A model generated the notes under the pieces. The model worked only from the letters and a program-made list of their open reading frames with translations, had not been told where the DNA came from and did not search any database. Shown piece by piece: positions 5,578-57,552 of a DNA stretch of 64,000 nucleotides. Source of the DNA: an uncultured Hormoscilla sp. (lineage in GTDB: Bacteria > Cyanobacteriota > Cyanobacteriia > Cyanobacteriales > Desertifilaceae); assembly GCA_963921275.4 (NCBI GenBank), contig OZ001293.3:1952001-2016000 (forward strand), read 5' to 3'. How positions within the stretch are numbered: the first letter of the stretch is position 1; each line of letters opens with the position of its first letter. The position numbers and the translations under genes were made by a program.

Positions 5578-5905
5578 TCAGAAAAGATCGATAATATTCA
5601 AGATGCCTTGGATGGGTCTGGCTAAGCGGGTCAGCTGATTGTAAGCATCAGTGAGGAGATCGCCTTCAAGATGGACTTGTTGGGTAGGGTATTTTTGAAT
5701 GGTTTCCATGAGTGTGATTTGACCGTCGTCACTGGCCGAGAGGATGAGGGCCGATCGTAAGGCTTGCCGAGATGCTTGATGGGAGGGGGTATGCACTGCT
5801 AAACTGAGGCGATCGAGGATCAGTTCACCCATCTGGCTATTGAGTACCCGATCGAGAAAGATCAGATTGACTGGGACGGGTGTGGTGAGGGTGCGGCGAA
5901 GATTG
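5578..5905 (-). pseudogene. C-terminal fragment of a DUF1400 (alpha/beta hydrolase-associated) protein
   Basis: FLDRVLNSQMGELILDRL...QALRSALILSASDDGQITLMETIQKYPTQQVHLEG; no native N-terminus. Confidence 0.65.
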
Positions 5906-6091
5906 TCGCAGACCTCGGTAAGGTGCTTTCGCTTCTGCTTTGAGTCGAGCATATTTTTCCGGACTCAGCTTGCCGTGTCCCTTTACATGCGTTCTATCGT
6001 AGTTTCTCATGCCTGTCAAGGGTTCCGAGGAGCCGGTTGGTGGGTTCGGTGTTGGCTTGTTTGAGCCTGCTGGGTCTGTCATAGGTTTCAT
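5900..6091 (-). pseudogene. N-terminal fragment of a DUF3493 protein
   Basis: KLSPEKYARLKAEAKAPYRGLRQ motif, then abrupt loss of similarity. Confidence 0.7.
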
Positions 6092-6107
6092 CTGTTGTTG
6101 TTAGGTT

Positions 6108-6273
6108 AACTCAAGTTGCTACCTATAAAAATTGCGACCTCCCAGACAGCCATTTTGGTAAATTTATTCGCCAAAATGCTGTTTTGGGGTAAATCACAAG
6201 GTAATTTTGGCTGATTTTGGCTGATTTTGGCGCTTTGCAAGGAGTTGAGGTTCTATAGGTAGCAACTTAGGTT
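6108..6273. mobile_element. 166-bp MITE
   Basis: TIR AACTCAAGTTGCTACCTATA / TATAGGTAGCAACTTAGGTT; 5-bp direct repeat AGGTT at 6103-6107 and 6274-6278. Confidence 0.75.
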
Positions 6274-6350
6274 AGGTTAATATTGTCTAGAAAATTTTTC
6301 TCGGGAAGCACACAATAGCAAAAAGCGTGCTATACTAGGAAAAAGTATGT

Positions 6351-6422
6351 GCCGGTGTAGCTCAGTGGTAGAGCATTCGATTCGTAATCGAACGGTCAGC
6401 GGTTCAAATCCGCTCATCGGCT
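6351..6422 (+). tRNA. trnT: tRNA-Thr(CGT)
   Basis: Acceptor stem GCCGGTG/CATCGGC; anticodon arm TTCGA-TT CGT AA-TCGAA; T-loop GGTTCAAATCC; no encoded CCA; TATACT at 6331. Confidence 0.97.
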
Positions 6423-6455
6423 TGGTTTGGATGATTAGTTGATTAGTAATTGTAA

Positions 6456-6621
6456 CTGGACAGTGCGAAGTTCTTTGGGGAACTGCTTGAAAGGAAGCGG
6501 GTTTGGGCCCGATCGACCTATATGCAGCAATTCGCGGGATCCGAAAGGCTTACAGCCTTTCGGATCAAGGGGTTCAGCTTTTAGGATAGGTCATATTTTC
6601 AGAGAACTTCGCACTCTCCAG
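6456..6621. other. Long nested inverted-repeat structure
   Basis: Outer arms CTGGACAGTGCGAAGTTCTTTG / CAGAGAACTTCGCACTCTCCAG; inner GACCTAT/ATAGGTC and GATCCGAAAGGCT/AGCCTTTCGGATC. Confidence 0.75.
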
Positions 6622-6736
6622 AACTGAGGTAATTTAAATGAAATCCTTACAAGGCTTGCGGTTTCCGCCGCGTTCGCCCCTCCCGAAAATTTACACAAAT
6701 GATTTAGGTTCGCTATAAATTGAGAGTACCACGTCC

Positions 6737-6792
6737 TCGTGTCACTTGACAAGCATGAGAAGATATTTTATCATGCTTGTCAAGTGACACGA
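6737..6792. repeat. Perfect 22-bp inverted repeat with a 12-nt loop
   Basis: TCGTGTCACTTGACAAGCATGA / TCATGCTTGTCAAGTGACACGA. Confidence 0.9.
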
Positions 6793-6882
6793 ACGCCACA
6801 TTCACTCCTATTTACAACTAGCAGAAAGACTATGGCCTTTGACCAATGAACCGATAGCAAATCGTAGCGATCGCATGTCCTA

Positions 6883-7720
6883 GCTCCGCCTAGGAACGAC
6901 AATTTGAGGCAGAGCCTCTAGTCAAGCATCTCTATTCTATCACCTTCTGCCTCTGGGTAAACTACACGCAAAATATACCCGATCGCCCGTTCTAACCGGT
7001 TGCCAGGCGATCGCCTCTTTCGCTTCGTTGTTAGCCCGCCCGGGGTTCAAACCTCGGGCTAATAGCTTAAGTCGGTTGAAAACCGACTACCACCTTTTCT
7101 ATTATATACCCTTTCGCTTCATTGTTCCGCCTGGGAACGACAATTTGAGGCAGAGCCTCTAGTCAAGCATCTCTATTCTATCACCTTCTGCCTCTGGAGG
7201 AAACTCAACCCCAAATCTCCCCGATCTCCTGTTCTAACCGGTTGCCTGGCGATCGCCCATTTTGCCAGAAAACCCGATCGCCCCTAACCTGCTCTCCGAT
7301 GGCGTGCGCTTTGGGCTTACCGTCACCCCCGATCGCCAGTCCTTTCGCCCTAACAATTCCCACCAGAAATGTAGGGCTGCTGAACCCTTGCATCCCTACT
7401 TGTAATAGCCAATTACACCATATTTTTATCTTGACACATTCTTTTGGCATTTTCAACCACTTTTTGATATTTATTTTACCGAAATTAATAAAATTTTAGC
7501 GATTCTTTATAAGACATATAAATTAAATACTATCATCATATGGCCGAGCGATCGCTTCGAACCTACTCTCCGATAATGCCTGCGCTTTGGGCGCTTACCA
7601 TCACCCCCGATCGCCAGTCCAACAATCCATCAGGAATGTCGGGGTGCTGAACGCCTGCATCCCTACTTGTAATAGCCGATTCAATCATATCTTTATCATG
7701 GCACATTTTTTGGGCATTGT
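6883..7720. repeat. Two pairs of diverged direct duplications (~6883-7016 vs ~7125-7258; ~7294-7452 vs ~7568-7718)
   Basis: Shared GGAACGACAATTTGAGGCAGAGCCTCTAGTCAAGCATCTC block and shared CCGATCGCCAGTCC...GCATCCCTACTTGTAATAGCC block. Confidence 0.85.
7033..7088. repeat. REP-like double hairpin (family also at ~8540-8617 and ~11203-11257)
   Basis: AGTCGGTTNAAACCGACT hairpin plus GCCCGGGG...CCCCGGCGGGCT hairpin. Confidence 0.7.
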
Positions 7721-32125: not shown

Positions 32126-33354
32126 ATGCCAACTTTTATTGCTAGTATTCGGGACTCAACAGGACAGCAGAAAAAAGAAAAGTTAACGGCAGACAATATT
32201 CAGGCAGCACGGATTTCTCTGATCAATAAGGGACTGTCGGTGCAGGACATCAAGAAAGCAGGTTTCAACCTGAAGGACATTGACTTCGACGAACTAAATG
32301 AAGCATTTACCATTGCGACAGCTAGTATCACGGTTAAGGATATAGCTGTATTTTCGCGTCAATTTGCGGCAATGGTAAATGCGGGGGTGGGGATGGTTAG
32401 ATGCCTGGGGGTGTTAACAGAAGAATGTGAAAATCCTAAGCTGAAACATGCTCTGAAGAAAATTTCGGGCGAGGTGCAAGAGGGAACAGATCTGTCGGAG
32501 GCAATGGGCAAACATCCGGCTTGCTTTAGCGATCTATACGTGGCGATGATATCGGCAGGGGAAGTAGGGGGGGTACTAGATGAGGTGCTCAACCGTCTGG
32601 CAAAGTGCTAGAAGATGCGGCCAGGTTGGAAAACGAGATGAAGTCAGCTATGTCCTACCCAGTGACGGTAGGAACATTGGCGGTGATCATTTTTATTAGT
32701 CTGTGTGTTTTTCTGCTGCCTACTTTTTCGGCTATTTTTGAAGACATTGGGGTAGAACTGCCAGCCTTCACCCAGTTCATGCTGGGAATTAGTGACTTTC
32801 TGATAGATGTCAAAAAGTCCTTGGGACTAGGGGCAATACTGTTAGTGCTCAAGTTGATTTACGATCAATGGTACAAAACTCCGGCGGGGAAGTTGATAAT
32901 GGATAAAATCTTCCTGAAGCTACCGTTGTTTGGAGAACTGATAACAAAAACAGCGACGGCGCGTTTTTGCCGCACGTTTGGGACTTTATCTCGCGCGGGA
33001 GTGCCAATCCTAACTTCTTTGGAAATTGTCCGGGATACGGCGGGGAATCAGGCGATATCAAATTCGGTGGAAGCGGCCCGCAATGAAATTCAGGGCGGGG
33101 GCATGATCAGCGTGGCTTTGGAAAGAGATAAAGTATTTCCGGCGATCGCGATGATGAAGATTGGTGAGGAAACGGGGCAGATAGACCAAATGCTGATGAA
33201 AGTGGCTGACTTCTATGAGGATGAAGTTGAGCAAGCTGTCAAAGCACTTACCAGTATGCTGGAACCAGTGATGATCGTGGTGATTGGCGGGATGGTAGGT
33301 TCGATTTTGCTGTCGATGTATCTGCCCATGTTTAAGGTGTTTGAATCACTGTAA
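32126..33354 (+). pseudogene. pilC: PilC (GspF family), split by a 1-nt frameshift near 32607
   Basis: AGEVGGVLDEVLNRLAK|LEDAARL...IGEETG; the two halves are ORFs 32126-32611 and 32605-33354. Confidence 0.85.
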
Positions 33355-36979: not shown

Positions 36980-37020
36980 AGGGTGGGGCTACCAGAACAA
37001 AGCCCGCCTCCGCGGGCTAG
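36966..37020. repeat. REP-like/IS200-IS605-end-like double hairpin
   Basis: AGCCCTCACCC-TAAA-GGGTGGGGCT and AGCCCGC-CTCC-GCGGGCT. Confidence 0.6.
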
Positions 37021-37214: not shown

Positions 37215-37579
37215 AGTGAGAGGTGTTACCGGCAGTTCTTCGAGTACGATGTTAGCTAGAACACACAACTAACACTAACTGCTTTCCCTTTTTGGGCCAG
37301 CGCATTAAGCCTTTTCGCTGGATCTTGATAACGATACTTACAGAGATTTGCTTGTTCTAACCTTGAGTCTCTTTCCTAGCGGCGTCACCGGTTTAGGCTA
37401 CCAGCTATCCTACATTTAAGTCCTCGCTTGGCACCACGGCGATGTTATGGAGCAGCACCTCCGACCGGTGTCACCCCCGTACCTGGGGGAGGGGAATCTA
37501 ACCCCCATGATCACCAGAGTTCCTAGTTTCCTAGGCTAGCGTTCCGTGTTTTACCACGTTAGGCGAGAACGAATCGCAC
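37215..37579 (-). ncRNA. Group II intron, 5' (domain I) fragment, copy 1
   Basis: Starts GTGCGATTCGTT; colinear with the complete copy at 41425-42293; no DV/DVI nearby. Confidence 0.85.
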
Positions 37580-38605: not shown

Positions 38606-40468
38606 ATGAGACCAGGTGCTATATACCTAGGGAACGATCGCTGTGAATTTATAGTGTGGGGACCGCTACTCAAGGAAGTCACTCTAAATATAGTGGGGAC
38701 CGCACCGCGCCAGATCCCTATGGAACGGTCAGCAGGGGGTTACTGGAGAGTGACTGCCGATAACATTTCTCCAGGAACACAATACCTTTACCAATTGGAT
38801 GGGGAAAAGACTCGCCCCGATCCGGCATCATATTATCAGCCAGGTAGCGTCCACGAACCATCCCAGGTGATCGAGCGCCATGCTTTTGCGTGGCAAGCGT
38901 GGCGCTGTCCGGCCCTGGCAGATTGGATTATCTATGAGTTGCATGTCAGTACTTTTACTCAGGAGGGAACCTTCGCAGGGATTATTCCCCGCTTGCAGGC
39001 GCTAAAGGAACTGGGCATAAATGCGATCGAACTGATGCCAGTGGCCCAGTTTCCGGGAAGTCGCAACTGGGGTTATGATGGAGTCTATCCCTACGCGGTG
39101 CAGAATTCCTACGGGGGTCCGGACGGACTCAAGCAGTTGGTAAATGCCTGTCACGAAGCGGAAATGGCAGTGATTCTGGATGTAGTCTACAATCACTTCG
39201 GTCCGGAAGGCAATTACACCCGGGATTTTGCTCCCTACTTTACCGAGAAGTACCATACTCCTTGGGGAAGTGCGATTAATTTTGACGACGCCTACAGTGC
39301 GGGCGTGCGGAACTTCTTCGTGGAAAATGCTCTATATTGGTTGCAAGACTATCATATAGATGCCCTGCGTTTAGATGCAGTTCACGCTATCTACGACTTT
39401 GGGGCCAAGCATTTCCTGGCAGAATTGGCAGAAGCTGTCGAAAGCTTGTCCCAGCAGGAAGGTCGCCCTTACTATTTGATAGCGGAAAGCGACCTGAATG
39501 ACGTGCGCGTTATTCGACCTCAAGCACTAGGTGGCTACGGGATCGACGCCCAATGGAGTGATGACTTTCACCACGCCCTGCATACAGTCCTGACAGGAGA
39601 ACAAAAGGGTTATTACCAAGATTTTGGCAAATGCGAACAGTTGGCGAAAGCATGGCGCGATCGCTTTGTTTATGCTTGGGATTATTCCCCCGCTCGCCAG
39701 CGCTATCACGGCAGTCACTCTGCAGCTACCGCATCGCATCCCCCAGAGCAATTTGTGGTGTGCAGCCAAAATCACGACCAAATTGGCAATAGAATGTTAG
39801 GGGAACGCCTCTCGCAACTGGTATCCTTTGCCGGGCTGAAGCTGGCGGCGGCAACGGTTTTGCTTTCTCCTTACATTCCCCTGCTGTTCATGGGCGAAGA
39901 GTATGGCGAAGAGTCTCCTTTCCTCTATTTTATCAGCCACGGAGACTCGGATCTGACTGAGGCAGTCAGGCGAGGACGAAAAGCAGAGTTCGAGGCATTT
40001 CATGAGGTGGGAGAACCGCCGGATGCAGCGAGTCCGGAGACATTTAAACGCTGCATCCTTAAATGGGAGCAGCGCAGCCAAGGGAAGCATCAAGTGTTAC
40101 TAGAATTATATCGGCAGTTAATTGGGTTGCGCCGCCACATGCAGAAAGGGTCTGGCGATTGCGCTGCGCGCACGCTACGCGATCGGAAAAACCTGGAAGT
40201 ATTAGCAATAGAAAAGGAGAAAATATTAATTTTTCGCCGTGGGAGTCAGGAAAGGCAATTTGCCTGTATAATGAATTTCAACGACAAAGAGGTAAAATAT
40301 ACCTCATATCTAGAGGGGAATAAGCGATTAGATTCCAGCGCTGCTGAATGGTTGGGCGATGGCTCTACTTTACCAGAGTCCCTAACACCACCCCAAGAGT
40401 TAACCCTGCCACCCCAAAGTTTTGCGATCTACGAACAGGGGAATGTTGACTGGGAAGAAAAGGTGTAA
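38606..40468 (+). CDS. treZ: Malto-oligosyltrehalose trehalohydrolase
   Basis: GH13 motifs NWGYDGV, DVVYNH, LRLDAVH, WSDDFHH, QNHDQIGNR, FMGEE. Confidence 0.96.
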   Translation: MRPGAIYLGNDRCEFIVWGPLLKEVTLNIVGTAPRQIPMERSAGGYWRVTADNISPGTQYLYQLDGEKTRPDPASYYQPGSVHEPSQVIERHAFAWQAWRCPALADWIIYELHVSTFTQEGTFAGIIPRLQALKELGINAIELMPVAQFPGSRNWGYDGVYPYAVQNSYGGPDGLKQLVNACHEAEMAVILDVVYNHFGPEGNYTRDFAPYFTEKYHTPWGSAINFDDAYSAGVRNFFVENALYWLQDYHIDALRLDAVHAIYDFGAKHFLAELAEAVESLSQQEGRPYYLIAESDLNDVRVIRPQALGGYGIDAQWSDDFHHALHTVLTGEQKGYYQDFGKCEQLAKAWRDRFVYAWDYSPARQRYHGSHSAATASHPPEQFVVCSQNHDQIGNRMLGERLSQLVSFAGLKLAAATVLLSPYIPLLFMGEEYGEESPFLYFISHGDSDLTEAVRRGRKAEFEAFHEVGEPPDAASPETFKRCILKWEQRSQGKHQVLLELYRQLIGLRRHMQKGSGDCAARTLRDRKNLEVLAIEKEKILIFRRGSQERQFACIMNFNDKEVKYTSYLEGNKRLDSSAAEWLGDGSTLPESLTPPQELTLPPQSFAIYEQGNVDWEEKV

Positions 40469-40475
40469 AGTATCC

Positions 40476-40590
40476 TGTAGGGTGAGCGATCGAGAGGGTA
40501 ACGCACCGGGTTCGAGGGTTGCGGTCACTTGCCCCAGCGCCAGGAACGGGGTATACTATGCGGGTGGGTGAGCGAGAGGGTAACGAGAGC
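40476..40590. repeat. ~100-bp REP-like unit, repeated at ~42722-42826
   Basis: GAGGGTAACGCACC...GAGGGTTGCG..CACTTGCCC...ACGGGGTATA...GGGTG..CGAGAGGGTAACG in both copies. Confidence 0.75.
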
Positions 40591-40737
40591 ATCTCTATTT
40601 TTTCATCTAGCCCTCAATGTCTCGGCGATGTGCGATTAATGTGCTCCCACAGCCGCGCAGTGCTCAACCGCGCGCTGTGTCTCCCCTTTTGTGCGAGTAA
40701 GATGTCTCCGCCGTATCTCCTGGGTAGTGCGAATATG

Positions 40738-42448
40738 GGCGTTGCACAATTACGGGATGATTTAACTAGAGACAGGTATGCAATCATAACGTAAATAGTG
40801 TCAAAGTAACTTAATTGAAAGCTTTAACATTTATTCTGATTTTGAGTAACACAATGTTTTCCTTTTTAATCGAGTTATATAATGTCTTAATCGACAGTTT
40901 TCACGTTCAACACGAGTCATGTATGTTTTACTCACTATATGATCGATATCTTCAATAAACTTTGGATATACTGACCAACCATCCGTCACAAAAGATGCCT
41001 TTTATTATTTCCAGGCTTAAATATTTCTGCAGAACGGTCTCCTAAAGTCCATGCTATAATTCAAGGTTTAAAATGATTTACAACTGTCCATAACCACTTT
41101 TTATTCTTTTTTTCACCTACAATGTAACTCGTCAATCTCTGAAACCTCCGGTATCTCATAGTTTTCAGGGAGAACAGGCTCTTGTTGAGCTACTTGTTTT
41201 ACCCAATTTATAATAGTATTATGCTTGACATCAGTGATTCTTTCAATCCCTCGAAAGCCTTTCCCGTTGACGTACATTTTTAGACAATTTTCTTGAAATT
41301 CTTTCGGATAGCCTCGTGGAGAATAATGTTCAATAAACTGGCGACCACAATTTTTGCAAATCAAATTTTGCTTACCACGACCATTTTTATTAACTTTTTC
41401 AGAAGCGTGGACATTTCATGTTGGATGGGGTCGAGCCGGGAATCGCTTCCCGACCCTCCCTTGAGGAACCGGACTTGCGATTTTCACCGCATCCGGCTAC
41501 TGGGTACTAGGCCCTTTTCATAGGTAGACTTAATAGGAATTACTTCCGTTAGCCCTTGCCGCCTGTCTTTTCTTCCCTTTCCTGGTTTAGCGAGTGGTTA
41601 TTCTGATAACCGTTAGTATCACCATTTTCAAGTCAGTTTTACCAGTTATCCATACCTTATCCTCCACTTGCGTTTCGGATTAGTTCCGTGGCTTTTTAGG
41701 ATTACTCATTCCAGCAGCTTCCTAGTATCACCGACCCACGTCAGCGCTGGCTACCCAGCATCATCTACATTACTGTAGATGTTATCCCAGGAATTACCCC
41801 GGGCATTCGCTTCTTGGGCCATCCCTCCCCCCGTGGCTTGCGCTTAACATCTAACTTGTCCTGATGGACAGCACACGAGAGGTTACTTCGTTCCCTAACA
41901 ACATTTCGCGATACCTTTAGGTCCACACTATACCCCGGGAGCTATTTGAGTACTATATTAGCCAGAGTCTAAAACTAATACTAGCTACCATTTCCTTTTT
42001 AGGCCAGCGCATATAGCCTTATTTCGCTGGTTCCTTATAACGAGGCTTGCACATGTTTGCCTGCTCTAACCTTGGATATCTTTCCTAGCGGCGTCACCGG
42101 CTTAGGCTGCCAGTTATCCTACATTTGAGTCCTCGCTTAGCACCACGATGATGTCGCTTCGTAGCACCGAGGACCGGTGTCACCCCCGTACCTGGGGGGA
42201 GGGGAATTTAACCCCCATGCGGTCAGAGTTCCCGGCTAATGAAACCGGGCTAGCGTTCCGTGTTTGACCACGTTAGGCTAGAACGAATCGCACCAACTCC
42301 TTAAGATTATATATTAGCCTTAATATCCATTATAACACTGATTGGTACTCCTGTGTAAAATTAGCTTAGGCTGATTATAAATTGATGATGAATTATTGCA
42401 GATTATTATAATCTGCAATAATTCATCATCCCTTCGTTGTGCAACGCT
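40738..42448 (-). mobile_element. IS1-family element (degenerate insA/insB at ~40800-41419) carrying a group II intron
   Basis: TIRs GGCGTTGCACAATTACGGGATGAT / ATCATCCCTTCGTTGTGCAACGCT; 8-bp TSD CGAATATG (40730-40737, 42449-42456); MKCP..CKNCGRQF...GFRGIER..HNTIINW..EIDEL. Confidence 0.9.
41425..42293 (-). ncRNA. Complete ORF-less group II intron (869 nt), copy 2
   Basis: 5' GTGCG; domain V AGCCGGATGCGGTGAAAATCGCAAGTCCGGTTC; domain VI with bulged A ending GACCCCAT; no RT ORF. Confidence 0.9.
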
Positions 42449-43010
42449 CGAATATGATGTCCCCGAGGTGTCTCTTGGGTAGTGCGGGGTTGCCTGCGTT
42501 GCATCCCGTCGCGCAGCGTGGCGCAGCCATAGACATCGAAGTGCGTCCGGGGGACATCAAGCTCCCCCGCAGAGCACATTGTAGTCGCACTACCCAGGAG
42601 ACACGGCCCCCTCGTTCCCACGGCGATGTACTCCGGGCAGTACGAATAGTGCGCCCGGAGTACATAGAAGAAGCCTGGAAACGGGTGACGGCGGTGGTGG
42701 CGAGGCTTGCATTGAGATGCACCCGAGGGTAACGCACCGAGATCGAGGGTTGCGACCACTTGCCCGATCGCAAGGGACGGGGTATAGTACACTCTGCGGG
42801 TGGGCGTTCGAGAGGGTAACGCACCGCGATTGCGCTGCGCAATCGCACCAGGTGGCAGCGGCGGCCACTAGCATTCTCCACTGTCACGCACTTCGGTGGC
42901 ACTCGGTGTGTTGCGTACCGAAGGTGGGGGATGGTGAGAAGGGAAAGATGAGTGGGAGAAAGGGGGAAAGTCAAATCCAAGTAAAATTGCACAGAAGCAA
43001 AGGAGAAAAA

Positions 43011-45860
43011 ATGCGGGTACCAATTGCGACTTATCGGCTTCAGTTCCGTCCGGAGTTTGGCTTTGCGTCAGCTCAAAAAATTCTGCCTTATCTGGCTGAA
43101 TTGGGGATATCAGATATCTACGCTTCCCCGATACTCAAAGCCCGATCGGGGAGTATCCACGGTTACGATGTGGTAGACACAAATCAAATTAACCCGGAAC
43201 TGGGAACGGAAGCAGAATTTGAATCTTTGATGGTCCAATTGCAAGAACGAGAAATGGGATGGGTACAAGATATCGTGCCTAACCACATGGCTTATGATAG
43301 CCAAAATCAATTCTTGATGGATGTTTTGATTCACGGACAGGACTCGGAATACTGTGAGTTTTTTGATATTGATTGGGAACATCCCTACGAAGATATCAGA
43401 GGCAAGGTGCTGACGCCGATGCTGGGGGATTTTTACGGCCAATGCTTGGAAAATGGGGAAATTAAATTAAGCTATGACGAAAGGGGGCTGAGTATTAACT
43501 ACTACCGTCTTAAAATCCCCCTCAGGATAGAATCCTACGCGAGTTTTCTGAATCATGATTTTGGACGACTGTCTCGATCCCTGGGACGCAGCCATCCAGA
43601 TGTGATAAAAATTTTGGGGATTCTATATATCGTTAAGAATATCCCATCGGAAACTGCGGGGATAGAGCGGAAAGAGCAGGGGGAATTTGTCAAGGGACTG
43701 CTTTGGGAACTATACAATGATAACCAGAAAGTGAAAGGGTTTATCGACCAGAACTTGAAAAGATTTAACGGAGAGGTGGGGAAACCGGAAAGTTTTGACC
43801 TGTTGGACGATCTACTGGGAGAGCAGTTTTTCTGCCTGTCCTTTTGGAAGGTAGGAGCAGAAGAACTCAACTATCGGCGTTTCTTTACGGTGAATGAGTT
43901 GATTTGTCTGCGCATAGAAGATGCGCAGGTTTTTGAGAAAACTCACGCTCTGATTGATAAGCTAGTAGGGTCAGGGAAGTTGACAGGACTGAGAATCGAC
44001 CACATTGATGGACTCTATGCTCCCACGGAATACTTGGAACGTCTCCGTGCCAAAATGGGGGATATATATATTGTCGCCGAGAAGATTCTGGAACTGGGAG
44101 AGGAATTGCCGAGTTCGTGGAAGCTCCAAGGTACGTCAGGATATGATTTCCTCAATCACGTGAATAGCCTTTTCTGTCAGAAGGAAAATGAAAATGCTTT
44201 TACCGATCTATACGAGCGCCTGACGGGTTTGAGACCAGTATATGAGGAAATGCTGGCGGACAAAAAGCGGCTGATTGCGGAAACGAATTTAGTCGGAGAT
44301 GTGAATAATTTGGCGCACCTGCTGAAAAGAATTGCCGGTGGATACCGATACGGACGGGATTTTACCTTGGAGGGATTGAGAAAGGCAATCCTAGAAGTAT
44401 TGGTGCAGTTTCCGATCTATTGTACTTATATCGATAGGGAGGGAGTGAGCGATCGGGCACGGGGATACTTGCAAGAGGCGATCGAAAAAACCAAAAGTCA
44501 GATTCCGCAGTTACTGAACGAAATCAACTTAATTGAAAAGTTCCTATTGCTGGAGTACGACGAGTGGCTTTCCGAATCAGAACGGGAACGGTGGTTGCAT
44601 TTTAGCATGAGATTTCAGCAATTCTCTGGTCCGTTGATGGCAAAGGGGATTGAGGATACTCTATTTTATGTCTACAACCGACTGGTATCTCTGAACGAGG
44701 TAGGGGGCCATCCGGATCGATTTGGCTTGGCGGTTTCTGAGTTTCACGAGTATAATCAGAAAAAACTGGCAGATTGGCCCCACGCCATGAATGCCACTTC
44801 CACCCACGATACGAAACGCAGTGAAGATACCCGGTTGCGCCTTAACGTGCTTTCGGAAATGCCGGAAGAGTGGGAACAGCAGGTGAAAAGTTGGCGGGAA
44901 ATGAACCGGGATAAGAAAACTGTGGTAGGGAAGCGCAGCATTCCCGATCGCAACGACGAGTATTTCCTGTATCAAAATATGTTGGGTGCATTTCCCGAAG
45001 CAGTTCTCCCTTTGCGTTGTCAGGTGGAACTAAAGAACGAGGGGTTAGAGGGGATCGATAAAGAGGAGTATACTGAATTTGTCGATCGGATCAAAGATTA
45101 CGTCATCAAGGCGGTGCGGGAAGCCAAAGTCCATACGGCGTGGTTGCGGGCGGATACAGAATATGAGGAGGGTTTTGTTGCCTTTGTCGATCAGATATTA
45201 AATCCTGGTGAAGAGAACGAATTTCTCTCATCATTTCGGGCCCTCCAGCAGCGGTTGGCGGTTTACGGCAGCTTCAATTCTCTGTCCCAAACCTTGCTGA
45301 AAATTGCCTCGCCGGGAGTGCCGGACTTTTACCAGGGGACGGAACTGTGGGATTTGAGTCTGGTGGACCCCGATAACCGCCGTCCAGTCAATTATGACGA
45401 TCGACTGTCATTTTTGCAAGAGATTAAACGCCGCTGCCAGACGGGAATGATGAGTTTGATTTCTGATTTGAAGGCAACCCGGGCCGACGGACGGATGAAG
45501 CTATTTTTGATCGCCCGCGCCTTGGAGGCGAGAAAACAATATTTGCCAGTTTTCCAGGAGGGAGATTATTTGCCTTTACAGGTGTCGGGTCAATATGCTA
45601 ACCATATAGTGGCTTTTGCGAGACACTATATGGGTAAGACCGCGATCGCAGTTGCCCCCCGCTTGCTCGCGCGCGTCATCGGACCGGAACAATATCCCCT
45701 CGGTACAGAAGTTTGGGGAGATACGCGCTTGGAAATTCCTGCCCATTTACAGTCTAACTGGATAGAGGCGATCGTGAACGAGGAAATTTCAGGTAACGCG
45801 GCGCTATCAGTCGGTGAAATTCTGCAATATTTCCCAGTTGCACTTTTAGTTAGTTCGTAG
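43011..45860 (+). CDS. treY: Malto-oligosyltrehalose synthase
   Basis: ATYRLQF, HGYDVVD, DIVPNHM, LRIDHIDGL, STHDTKRSED, PGVPDFYQG, LVDPDNRRPV; AAGGAG RBS before ATG 43011. Confidence 0.96.
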   Translation: MRVPIATYRLQFRPEFGFASAQKILPYLAELGISDIYASPILKARSGSIHGYDVVDTNQINPELGTEAEFESLMVQLQEREMGWVQDIVPNHMAYDSQNQFLMDVLIHGQDSEYCEFFDIDWEHPYEDIRGKVLTPMLGDFYGQCLENGEIKLSYDERGLSINYYRLKIPLRIESYASFLNHDFGRLSRSLGRSHPDVIKILGILYIVKNIPSETAGIERKEQGEFVKGLLWELYNDNQKVKGFIDQNLKRFNGEVGKPESFDLLDDLLGEQFFCLSFWKVGAEELNYRRFFTVNELICLRIEDAQVFEKTHALIDKLVGSGKLTGLRIDHIDGLYAPTEYLERLRAKMGDIYIVAEKILELGEELPSSWKLQGTSGYDFLNHVNSLFCQKENENAFTDLYERLTGLRPVYEEMLADKKRLIAETNLVGDVNNLAHLLKRIAGGYRYGRDFTLEGLRKAILEVLVQFPIYCTYIDREGVSDRARGYLQEAIEKTKSQIPQLLNEINLIEKFLLLEYDEWLSESERERWLHFSMRFQQFSGPLMAKGIEDTLFYVYNRLVSLNEVGGHPDRFGLAVSEFHEYNQKKLADWPHAMNATSTHDTKRSEDTRLRLNVLSEMPEEWEQQVKSWREMNRDKKTVVGKRSIPDRNDEYFLYQNMLGAFPEAVLPLRCQVELKNEGLEGIDKEEYTEFVDRIKDYVIKAVREAKVHTAWLRADTEYEEGFVAFVDQILNPGEENEFLSSFRALQQRLAVYGSFNSLSQTLLKIASPGVPDFYQGTELWDLSLVDPDNRRPVNYDDRLSFLQEIKRRCQTGMMSLISDLKATRADGRMKLFLIARALEARKQYLPVFQEGDYLPLQVSGQYANHIVAFARHYMGKTAIAVAPRLLARVIGPEQYPLGTEVWGDTRLEIPAHLQSNWIEAIVNEEISGNAALSVGEILQYFPVALLVSS

Positions 45861-46176: not shown

Positions 46177-46240
46177 CCACCTTACCCGGGTGCTGATGTA
46201 GATGTAGGATGGGCACTGCCCACCTTAAGCTATGAATTAG

Positions 46241-46266
46241 GGCGTTGCACAACTACGGGATGATAG
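46241..46266 (+). mobile_element. Solo end of the IS1-family element
   Basis: GGCGTTGCACAACTACGGGATGAT is nearly identical to the TIR at 40738. Confidence 0.7.
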
Positions 46267-54639: not shown

Positions 54640-55000
54640 GTGCGATTCGTTCTAGCCTAACGTAGTAATACGGAACGCTAGCCTAGGAAACTAGGAACTC
54701 TGGTATTCATGGGGTTAAATTCCCTCTCCCCAAGTACGGGGGTAACCGCGTGAGGTGCTGTGGAGTAACATCACTATTGGTGCTCAGCGAGGACTTAAAT
54801 GTAGGATAGCTGGCAGCCATAGCTGGTGACACCGCGCTTGTTAGATACCCAAGGTTAGAATAAACGAACTTATGTAAGCCTCGTTATGTAGAACCGGTGA
54901 AATAAGGCTGTATACACCGGAGACAAAAGTCAACGTAGCTAGTGTTAGTTGTCGCTCGTAACTAACATCGTACTCGAAAAGCTACCGGGGTAGAGTAGGA
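54640..55000 (+). ncRNA. Group II intron, 5' (domain I) fragment, copy 3
   Basis: Starts GTGCGATTCGTTCTAGCCTAACG; colinear with copies 1 and 2; ends at the REP cluster. Confidence 0.85.
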
Positions 55001-55002
55001 AC

Positions 55003-55175
55003 CTAAAGGCAGAGCCTCTAGAGGTGCGTTCCCTGCCGGAGTCAGGGAACGAGGACAAATGCTTTTGTCTGGTTCGGAGGCTCTGCCTTGGAACCCTCTC
55101 GGGAACGAGGACAAATGCTTTTGTCTGGTTCGGAGGCTCTGCCTTGGAACCCTCTCGGGAGGCAGAGCCTCCCGA
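55003..55175. repeat. REP cluster downstream of the RAYT gene
   Basis: GAGGCAGAGCCTC, GTTCCCTGCCGGAGTCAGGGAACGAG, GGTTCGGAGGCTCTGCCTTGGAACC x2. Confidence 0.8.
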
Positions 55176-57401: not shown

Positions 57402-57545
57402 GTTCCTTCGAGGCGATGCCTTGGAACCCCCCTCCGAGGCTCTGCCTCCAGTAGACTCAGCGAGCGCGACAGTGGAGGCAGAGCCTCTAGAGGCCCGTTC
57501 CCTGCCGGAGTCAGGGAACGAGGTTTTCTGGAGGCTCTGCCTCAC
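57402..57545. repeat. REP unit, continuation of the copy split at 55829
   Basis: GAGGCGATGCCTTGGAACC...GAGGCTCTGCCTC...GAGGCAGAGCCTC...GTTCCCTGCCGGAGTCAGGGAACGAG. Confidence 0.8.
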
Positions 57546-57552
57546 TACATTG

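Follow-up and report, generated by a model that had tools for sequence, protein, structure and literature searches.

Within a 64,000-nucleotide (nt) stretch of DNA from an uncultured Hormoscilla sp. (GenBank assembly GCA_963921275.4, contig OZ001293.3, positions 1,952,001 to 2,016,000 of the forward strand; hereafter the window, numbered from its first letter), we have found an insertion sequence (IS) of the IS1 family that carries a group II intron without an open reading frame (ORF), lying in sense orientation between the Shine–Dalgarno (SD) sequence and the start codon of the transposase gene. We consider, with a probability of about three in four, that this arrangement is the outcome of ordinary retrohoming of an ORF-less type IIB intron into the leader of the IS, the dependence of transposase translation on splicing being an incidental consequence and not an evolved switch. 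The coordinates of the intron, of its host element and of the pairing partners that connect them are collected in Table 1.

The intron was recognized by both its conserved domains and its relatives. A whole-window Rfam scan at gathering thresholds gave, apart from one tRNA, a single match, to the domain V/domain VI (DV/DVI) model RF00029 at 41425–41501(−), which covers the full model (1–77) at 44.4 bits (E 1.9e-05; gathering score 40). A permissive rescan recovered the same DV/DVI match together with plastid IIB-type DV matches and a weak domain I match (RF01999, 22 bits where the gathering score is 36). Given the window-wide Rfam E value and the many homologous copies described below, chance is not an issue for the intron call. 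The 5′ terminus, GTGCG (GUGCG) at 42293–42289(−), was read directly and fits the group II GUGYG; the same GTGCG start is found in 11 of 11 aligned family 5′ ends, and the intron scores 894.8 against the family profile (nhmmer). The DV and DVI helices are both kept by compensatory pairs in relatives, and they were recovered, along with the hairpin that bears exon-binding site 1 (EBS1), in the minimum free energy fold of the 871-nt RNA (−302.9 kcal/mol, z = −3.0 against 20 shuffles). Inside the intron no ORF exceeds 53 amino acids, and the reverse transcriptase (RT)/maturase ORF that a mobile intron has in domain IV is missing, which makes it an ORF-less derivative. The intron belongs to a diversified IIB-type family present in Hormoscilla metagenome-assembled genomes (MAGs). 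Its 5′ end, GUGCGAUUCGUU, matches GUGCGAUUC, the IIB2 consensus as used in one account of cyanobacterial introns (PMC4649490), and this 5′ end, a stem-less EBS2 and a pair between EBS3 and intron-binding site 3 (IBS3) match the criteria given there, pointing to a IIB2-like assignment.

The host element has terminal inverted repeats (IRs) of 23–24 nt. An inverted-repeat search located them at 40739–40761 and 42425–42447, and the exact ends, 40738 and 42448, were set against relatives, which share the same ends; 8-bp duplications like those bordering this copy also flank IS relatives at loci L048 and L001. The −10 region (TG-extended, TGTTATAAT, 42337–42329(−)) follows a −35-like TACACA, and relatives conserve it in the form GTGTTATCATGG or GTGCTATAATGG. 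The IS ends, the palindrome next to the left end and the promoter have been left untouched by the intron insertion; the palindrome (42384–42430) may stop read-through transcription or bind transposase. Downstream of the intron, PF03400 (DDE_Tnp_IS1) matches 40831–40989(−) with an E value of 1.3e-13, and the N-terminal piece (MKCP..., ATG 41419) is 79% identical to P0001, an intact 229-amino-acid single-ORF IS1-family transposase with PF03400 that starts MKCPECGSEK...; because of this homology we regard the ATG at 41419 as the true transposase start. The rest of the reading is scattered over three frames with stops, with 34 gap positions relative to the related locus L028, and the transposase of this IS copy is a pseudogene. 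An earlier sequence-only reading of this DNA had seen in it a sense-oriented group II intron that lacks an ORF and parts the SD of an IS1-family transposase from its start codon, and the Rfam match above the gathering threshold (a check that it had suggested), the lack of any intron ORF above 53 amino acids and the PF03400 domain all bear it out. The landmarks that it listed (extended −10 at 42337–42329, AAGGAG at 42302–42297, GTGCG at 42293 and ATG at 41419, MKCP) can be read directly, and the degradation of the transposase that it had noticed is evident in frameshifts, stops and deletions.

Table 1. Features of the intron-bearing IS1-family element, in window coordinates.
Feature	Coordinates	Strand	Basis
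ORF-less group II intron, IIB type, 871 nt	41423–42293	−	5′ end, Rfam DV/DVI, family profile, 3′-end comparisons
Domain V: AGC triad, GAAA loop, 2-nt AA bulge	41467–41498	−	Rfam; compensatory changes in relatives
Domain VI with bulged A at 41431	41427–41461	−	Rfam, family alignment
EBS1, GACUCU, loop of a 9-bp hairpin	41964–41969	−	Varies with exons; duplex energies
IBS1, GGAGUU, exon −7 to −2, overlaps the SD	42295–42300	−	Pairs with 41964–41969, 6 bp, 2 G-U
EBS2, UAAGG, unpaired segment after CCUCGU	42033–42037	−	Varies with exons; fold
IBS2, UCUUA, exon −13 to −9	42302–42306	−	Pairs with UAAGG 42033–42037
EBS3, U, just 3′ of the EBS1 hairpin, pairs with A 41422	41930–41930	−	Column 432 of alignment A1
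First three 3′-exon bases, AAC; A at 41422 is IBS3	41420–41422	−	Relatives, EBS3 pairing
IS1-family insertion sequence, 1711 bp (~840 bp IS and 871-nt intron)	40738–42448	−	Terminal IRs, ends against relatives, PF03400
Target-site duplication, left copy, CATATTCG on the minus strand	42449–42456	.	Direct reading; identical to 40730–40737
Target-site duplication, right copy	40730–40737	.	Direct reading
Left terminal IR (aGCGTTGCACAA...GGGATGAT)	42425–42448	−	IR pair of 23 nt, 87% complementary
Right terminal IR	40738–40761	−	Same IR pair as 42425–42448
Perfect palindrome, 23-nt arms, terminator-like, inside the left IR and upstream of the IS promoter	42384–42430	−	100% complementary; conserved in Hormoscilla relatives
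Promoter-like site: TACACA, 17-nt spacer, TG-extended TATAAT	42329–42357	−	10 of 12 consensus positions, TG present
SD, AAGGAG, followed by TTG	42297–42302	−	Direct reading
Degraded transposase gene, ATG 41419–41417	40831–41419	−	Frameshifts, stops, deletions

For comparison we retrieved IS relatives by a scan of genome contigs with P0001, which yielded 78 loci from the best 80 of 283 matching stretches; 49 of these loci come from three Hormoscilla MAGs and the others from Pseudanabaena, Nostoc and further cyanobacteria. None of the 78 (within those best 80 of 283 stretches) has an intron between SD and ATG. The uninterrupted leader AAGGAGTYGAAMATGAAATG is present in 47 of them, with AAGGAG 6 nt upstream of the ATG, and these copies read AAGGAGTYGAAMATG and not AAGGAGTTGCCAACATG. 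At the DNA level, the window element is 71% (left piece) and 78–80% (right piece) identical to the intron-less Hormoscilla IS. A distant-mode search of a plasmid collection with the whole element gave 13 remote IS1 transposase records (60–80% identity, annotated as 'IS1 family transposase') and no match to the intron. Locus L038 also holds an IS copy that is 5′-truncated one base before the ATG, of which IS positions 158–872 remain.

These relatives, together with the other members of the intron family, move the 3′ splice site by two nucleotides. The sequence-only reading had ended the intron at 41425, which gives an 869-nt intron, the junction AAGGAGTTG|CCAACATG and an 8-nt SD spacing. We place the predicted 3′ splice site at 41423, for an intron of 871 nt (42293–41423) whose end reads ...GGCTCGACCCCATCC on the minus strand, followed by AAC and then the ATG at 41419. 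The left piece of the IS (42448–42294) aligns without gaps to positions 144–297 of L028 and the right piece, from 41422, starts at position 298; the two halves thus abut exactly, which sets the boundary at 41423, and a boundary at 41425 would leave two extra bases. Along the intron family, all nine 3′ ends compared read CGACCCC followed by two variable bases (AT, GC, GT, TA, or GA) and by C[C/T], after which the flanks are unrelated. The EBS3 position (column 432 of alignment A1), chosen on four full-length copies and then found to hold in two more (the inner and outer introns of L048), is Watson–Crick complementary to the base following NNC[C/T] in six of six copies, with three pair types (U:A, A:U, G:C, U:A, G:C, A:U), and with a 41425-type boundary its partner would be an invariant C. 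The predicted ligated leader is AAGGAGTTG|AACATG, with the 6-nt spacer of the intron-free relatives, and the predicted spliced junction is AAGGAGTTG|AACATGAAATG; by the terms that the sequence-only reading had set for its own refutation, both this displaced 3′ site and the intron-free copies, in which the 8-nt junction had been expected, go against its boundary.

A fourth line of evidence comes from a sibling ORF-less intron (L038, 2924–3707(−)) that splits a gene for a leucine-rich-repeat (LRR) protein right after ...GWHGV, with exon 2 recognized as LRR_8 at E 4.5e-23. With the NNCC boundary, exon 1 (...GWHGV) runs on into exon 2 (TVAGSRVTKIDL...) and the frame stays open over at least another 100 codons; with the boundary equivalent to 41425 it reads PR*, a stop after two codons. 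The frame alone also permits boundaries 3 nt to either side of NNCC; we chose NNCC over them because the junctions of paralogues match, as the uninterrupted LRR paralogues of L035 and L038 read ...W[HY]GV|TV..RVT.IE... with the query pieces abutting in all four that align on both sides. A fifth match is a truncated gene fragment, uninformative on the junction. A protein search with exon 1 of L038 found no longer homologues, and neither the L012 nor the L025 intron is flanked by a long ORF, so that ORF continuity is uninformative at these two loci. The family 3′ splice site would lie 2 nt past the end of the standard DV/DVI model, and automatic annotation based on this model would therefore mis-join exons, as for the LRR gene of L038. 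A γ–γ′ covariation search under the 41425 boundary gave a single fitting column, located inside DV, and was rejected.

The target specificity of the intron was approached through eight copies with known 5′ exons, by assigning EBS1 and EBS2 to the two segments that vary with the 5′ exon. Across these copies, EBS1 is the loop of a 7–10-bp hairpin. A longest-run measure of the EBS–IBS matches was replaced by duplex energies, which separate cognate from non-cognate pairs both for EBS1 (means of −4.64 vs −2.14 kcal/mol, with 2 of 20000 permutations as good) and for EBS2 (−3.15 vs −0.53 kcal/mol, 12 of 20000). In the window copy, the EBS1 loop prefers its own exon among the eight (−6.0 kcal/mol), and siblings show equally recognizable pairings, a perfect CACUCC:GGAGUG in L038, and GUGUUUU:AAAGCAC and ACCUAC:GUAGGU in L012. 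The sequence-only reading had EBS1 pairing with an IBS1 that overlaps the SD; the overlap stands, with the register shifted by one base, the segment being GGAGTT (exon −7 to −2) and not GAGTTG. A conserved AACUCC/AGCUCC segment was also tried as EBS1 and rejected, being invariant while the exons vary.

Copies and fragments of the intron family are found at unrelated sites in the related loci and in the window itself, with targets that include the LRR gene and other introns. Full-length ORF-less copies were found at L012, L025, and L038, and one Hormoscilla MAG (L048, 3266–6427(−)) contains a twintron, with one intron near the 5′ end of the other and the outer one split by an IS1-family element, i.e., an IS inside an intron, the reverse of the window arrangement. 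The transposase gene of that IS1-family element holds a 121-nt miniature inverted-repeat transposable element with the same inverted repeats. In the window, 37229–37579(−) and 54640–55052(+) are fragments of domain I only, with 79 and 75% identity to the copy in the IS, and both lie behind unrelated 5′ exons; no DV was detected near either of them at E values up to 1, and they were treated as 3′-truncated. The second fragment ends where palindromic GGCAGAGCCTC-type repeats start.

Regarding the protein needed for mobility, the intron-encoded protein of L044, searched by tblastn against the window and all loci, gave no match in the window, and Pfam detected no RT domain in the 25 ORFs of 150 or more amino acids examined from the window. 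The search for an RT/maturase donor, which the sequence-only reading had recommended, is thus negative for the window and gave a candidate donor type in a related genome, where L044 (5109–7493(+)) is a 2.4-kb, more distant, ORF-containing relative of the intron. Its RT/maturase/HNH gene is split in two ORFs (5624–6367 and 6385–7524), with RVT_N, RVT_1, GIIM, and HNH domains.

The origin that we favor would start with an intron inserting in sense orientation, by base-pair-guided retrohoming, between AAGGAGTTG and AACATG, with the protein functions supplied in trans by the RT/maturase of another, related intron of the genome. Recognition of the target would rest on EBS2–IBS2 (UAAGG:UCUUA), EBS1–IBS1 (GACUCU:GGAGUU, taking in the GGAG of the SD), and EBS3–IBS3 (U:A). 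In the unspliced RNA the SD would be paired to EBS1 and lie 871 nt from the AUG, itself only 3 nt after domain VI, and the 15 nt preceding the AUG contain no purine-rich SD. Because of this gap and of the lack of a nearby purine-rich SD, translation would need splicing, and the transposase would become translatable only once AAGGAG–6 nt–AUG had been rebuilt. We read this dependence as incidental, a side effect of the usual spread of introns through a genome that has many of them, because the arrangement occurs in 0/78 relatives, the family seems to insert wherever its EBS sequences match, and the copy is dead; since it is a pseudogene, nothing would be regulated today. The IS may even have been dead when the intron entered it, the order of insertion and decay not being readable from a single copy.

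Several observations weigh against this explanation. The window EBS2 ranks its own exon second of the eight and not first, its EBS1–IBS1 duplex includes two G-U pairs, and the exon −1 G is unpaired, opposite an A, an offset that occurs likewise in L025 and in the inner intron of L048. The −1 mismatch and the G-U pairs could mean inefficient splicing or ectopic insertion. The longest-run control is weak (cognate mean 5.0 vs 3.96, with 19 of 56 non-cognate pairs reaching at least 5). The bulged A at 41431 sits 9 nt from the corrected 3′ end, where 7–8 nt is the usual branch A distance in group II introns, and the intron ends in CC, where the usual terminus is AY, so that both features are atypical. 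Finally, no intron-free copy of exactly the same IS subtype was found among the 78 loci, the empty-site references being 71–80% identical, and sister IS copies with the intron might exist beyond the best 80 of the 283 stretches, including in the source genome.

Some of these observations would suit a different history, which we consider unlikely, in which the intron splices poorly or never at this site and silenced the IS copy, which then decayed. The exon −1 mismatch, the two G-U pairs, the lack of a maturase gene in the window and the many transposase lesions are all in keeping with such a knock-out, and bacterial intron copies are described as mostly truncated or inactive (PMC4424553), like the two 3′-truncated family fragments in the window. 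However, DV and DVI have all their pairs and exceed the Rfam gathering threshold, the three exon-binding sites (EBS1–EBS3) still fit the exons beside them, and a single copy does not tell an intron that came first from a decay that came first.

We find it distinctly unlikely that the arrangement evolved as a switch in which splicing gates the translation of the transposase, EBS1 masks the SD and the intron spreads as IS cargo, as the sequence-only reading had suggested. The SD and the AUG are indeed parted by the intron, IBS1 overlaps the SD, and a composite with intact IS ends, hairpin and promoter could in principle transpose; moreover, splicing of Ll.LtrB is reported to control the relaxase gene of its own mobile element (PMC6003770, PMC7293003). 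Yet no intron occupies the site in any of the 78 related loci, 47 of which have an uninterrupted leader, the only intron-bearing copy among the loci examined is a pseudogene that was possibly dead before the intron entered, and the changed EBS sequences have led the family to many unrelated targets, as expected of opportunistic retrohoming. What remains of the proposed gate is the dependence of translation on splicing, which would follow from the anatomy; we have no evidence for a selected switch, and the idea of an intron carried as IS cargo likewise found no support among the 78 IS loci. The regulatory reading appears mechanically sound for the transcript and is unsupported as biology.

A variant that we hold to be very improbable is that, in the source genome, the SD-bearing leader of this IS1 subtype serves an ORF-less intron as a true homing site, with the transposase licensed only by a maturase acting in trans. 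If this were true, the excised intron could rebind GGAGUU in the leaders of intron-free copies, and we would be dealing with a retroelement-on-transposon control circuit within a composite element still able to transpose. The least credible proposal is a 3′ site after ...CCCCAT (41425) in an IS subtype that naturally has the 8-nt spacer AAGGAGTTGCCAACATG, which would agree with the end of the Rfam DV/DVI model, an A-pyrimidine terminus, a branch A 7 nt from the end and the lack of an intron-free copy of exactly this subtype among the relatives, but would require the CC to be a 2-nt insertion exactly at the insertion point relative to both intron-free subtypes, and conflicts with the two bases that vary before a constant C[C/T] in nine copies, with the covariation of EBS3 with the base after the CC in six of six, and with the LRR gene of L038, where the equivalent boundary gives a stop after two codons and NNCC restores the paralogue junction.

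Retrohoming of an ORF-less intron into an IS leader can be set beside several known systems. RmInt1 of Sinorhizobium meliloti has its natural homing site inside an insertion sequence, ISRm2011-2, where it sits within the transposase coding region and encodes its own protein. The window case is alike in being a bacterial group II intron in an IS, and unlike in being ORF-less and placed between SD and AUG. As for the displaced 3′ end, B.c.I4 of Bacillus cereus has a long extra 3′ segment. It is named among the introns with altered 3′ termini (PMC4424553), and the family described here resembles it in having the 3′ splice site off the standard DVI model position, with a shift of only 2 nt (...CCCC-NN-CC). 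The same source describes ORF-less bacterial introns as rare and nearly always found in genomes with related RT-encoding introns, and bacterial introns as often truncated and surrounded by other mobile DNA (PMC4424553).

The closest parallel by description seems to be Thermosynechococcus elongatus, whose ORF-less introns were shown experimentally to retrohome with protein supplied in trans (PMC2882425). The TeI3 families F3–F6 (Mohr et al., 2010) are ORF-less with exon-binding sites diverged to new targets, one family occupying a conserved position in ISEL1, an IS200-family element, and another lying between the two start codons of an RT ORF, and twintrons and an IS inside an intron are also described (PMC2882425). 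The Hormoscilla family is similar in being cyanobacterial, with ORF-less diverged members that would use a protein in trans, and in having both a twintron and an IS-in-intron in L048. The differences, as far as that account goes, are the host (IS1 family), the site in the untranslated leader between SD and AUG, and the single degraded copy seen here, whereas the IS site of T. elongatus is conserved and repeatedly occupied. Trichodesmium erythraeum, like the host here a filamentous cyanobacterium, has 10 ORF-less introns among 17 spliced ones, and a twintron (PMC4649490). The window family shares with them the GUGCGAUUC 5′ end, the stem-less EBS2 and the EBS3, a likeness of features, and the Trichodesmium introns are described as mostly located in protein-coding genes with splicing shown in vivo (PMC4649490).

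For Ll.LtrB in the ltrB relaxase gene of Lactococcus lactis, host-gene expression is reported to depend on splicing and can be restrained by the intron (PMC6003770, PMC7293003). In both cases a group II intron lies within a gene needed by its mobile host element; in those reports Ll.LtrB has its own protein gene, lies inside the coding region and exerts a control established by experiment, and the intron studied here is ORF-less, in the leader, and known through its sequence. In open-access PMC and bioRxiv literature we found no description of a group II intron that occurs naturally in the leader of an IS1-family element or separates an SD from a start codon in nature, and no paper linking Hormoscilla and group II introns. 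We see in this locus a clean natural example of a ribosome-binding site parted from its start codon by a group II intron, one EBS of which is predicted to pair with the SD itself, and in the Hormoscilla MAGs and the window a set of diversified ORF-less introns, twintrons and IS-in-intron nests comparable to that of Thermosynechococcus. Current understanding is not overturned, and the interest of the copy studied, a fossil, is modest.

The IS sits in a repeat-rich spacer between two alpha-amylase-family genes, 38606–40468 and 42717–45860 (the treZ–treY spacer), in what is otherwise ordinary chromosome, with genes for IF-2, PriA, DnaK/DnaJ/GrpE, type IV pilus ATPases, and MutS2. The spacer (40469–40731 and 42449–42821) consists of dispersed repeats, including 65-nt and 35-nt families at 86% identity, and a 38-nt unit directly flanks the IS on both sides. 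The ORF from 42717 probably starts inside the repeats, with the true treY start likely further downstream. Between treY and mutS2, a solitary IS1-family IR (GGGCGTTGCACAACTACGGGATGAT, 46238–46264(+)), with no partner nearby, is probably the remnant of another copy. Elsewhere in the window, two overlapping ORFs (32126–32611 and 32605–33354(+)), each with a T2SSF (PilC-type) domain, look like one frameshifted gene. A single GC-rich hairpin at 36996–37019(+) matches a CRISPR repeat model with 31.2 bits (gathering score 35) and forms no array, and the microRNA matches to a long palindromic repeat at 57470–57547 are spurious; the hairpin and the palindrome probably both represent short hairpin repeats of a dispersed kind.

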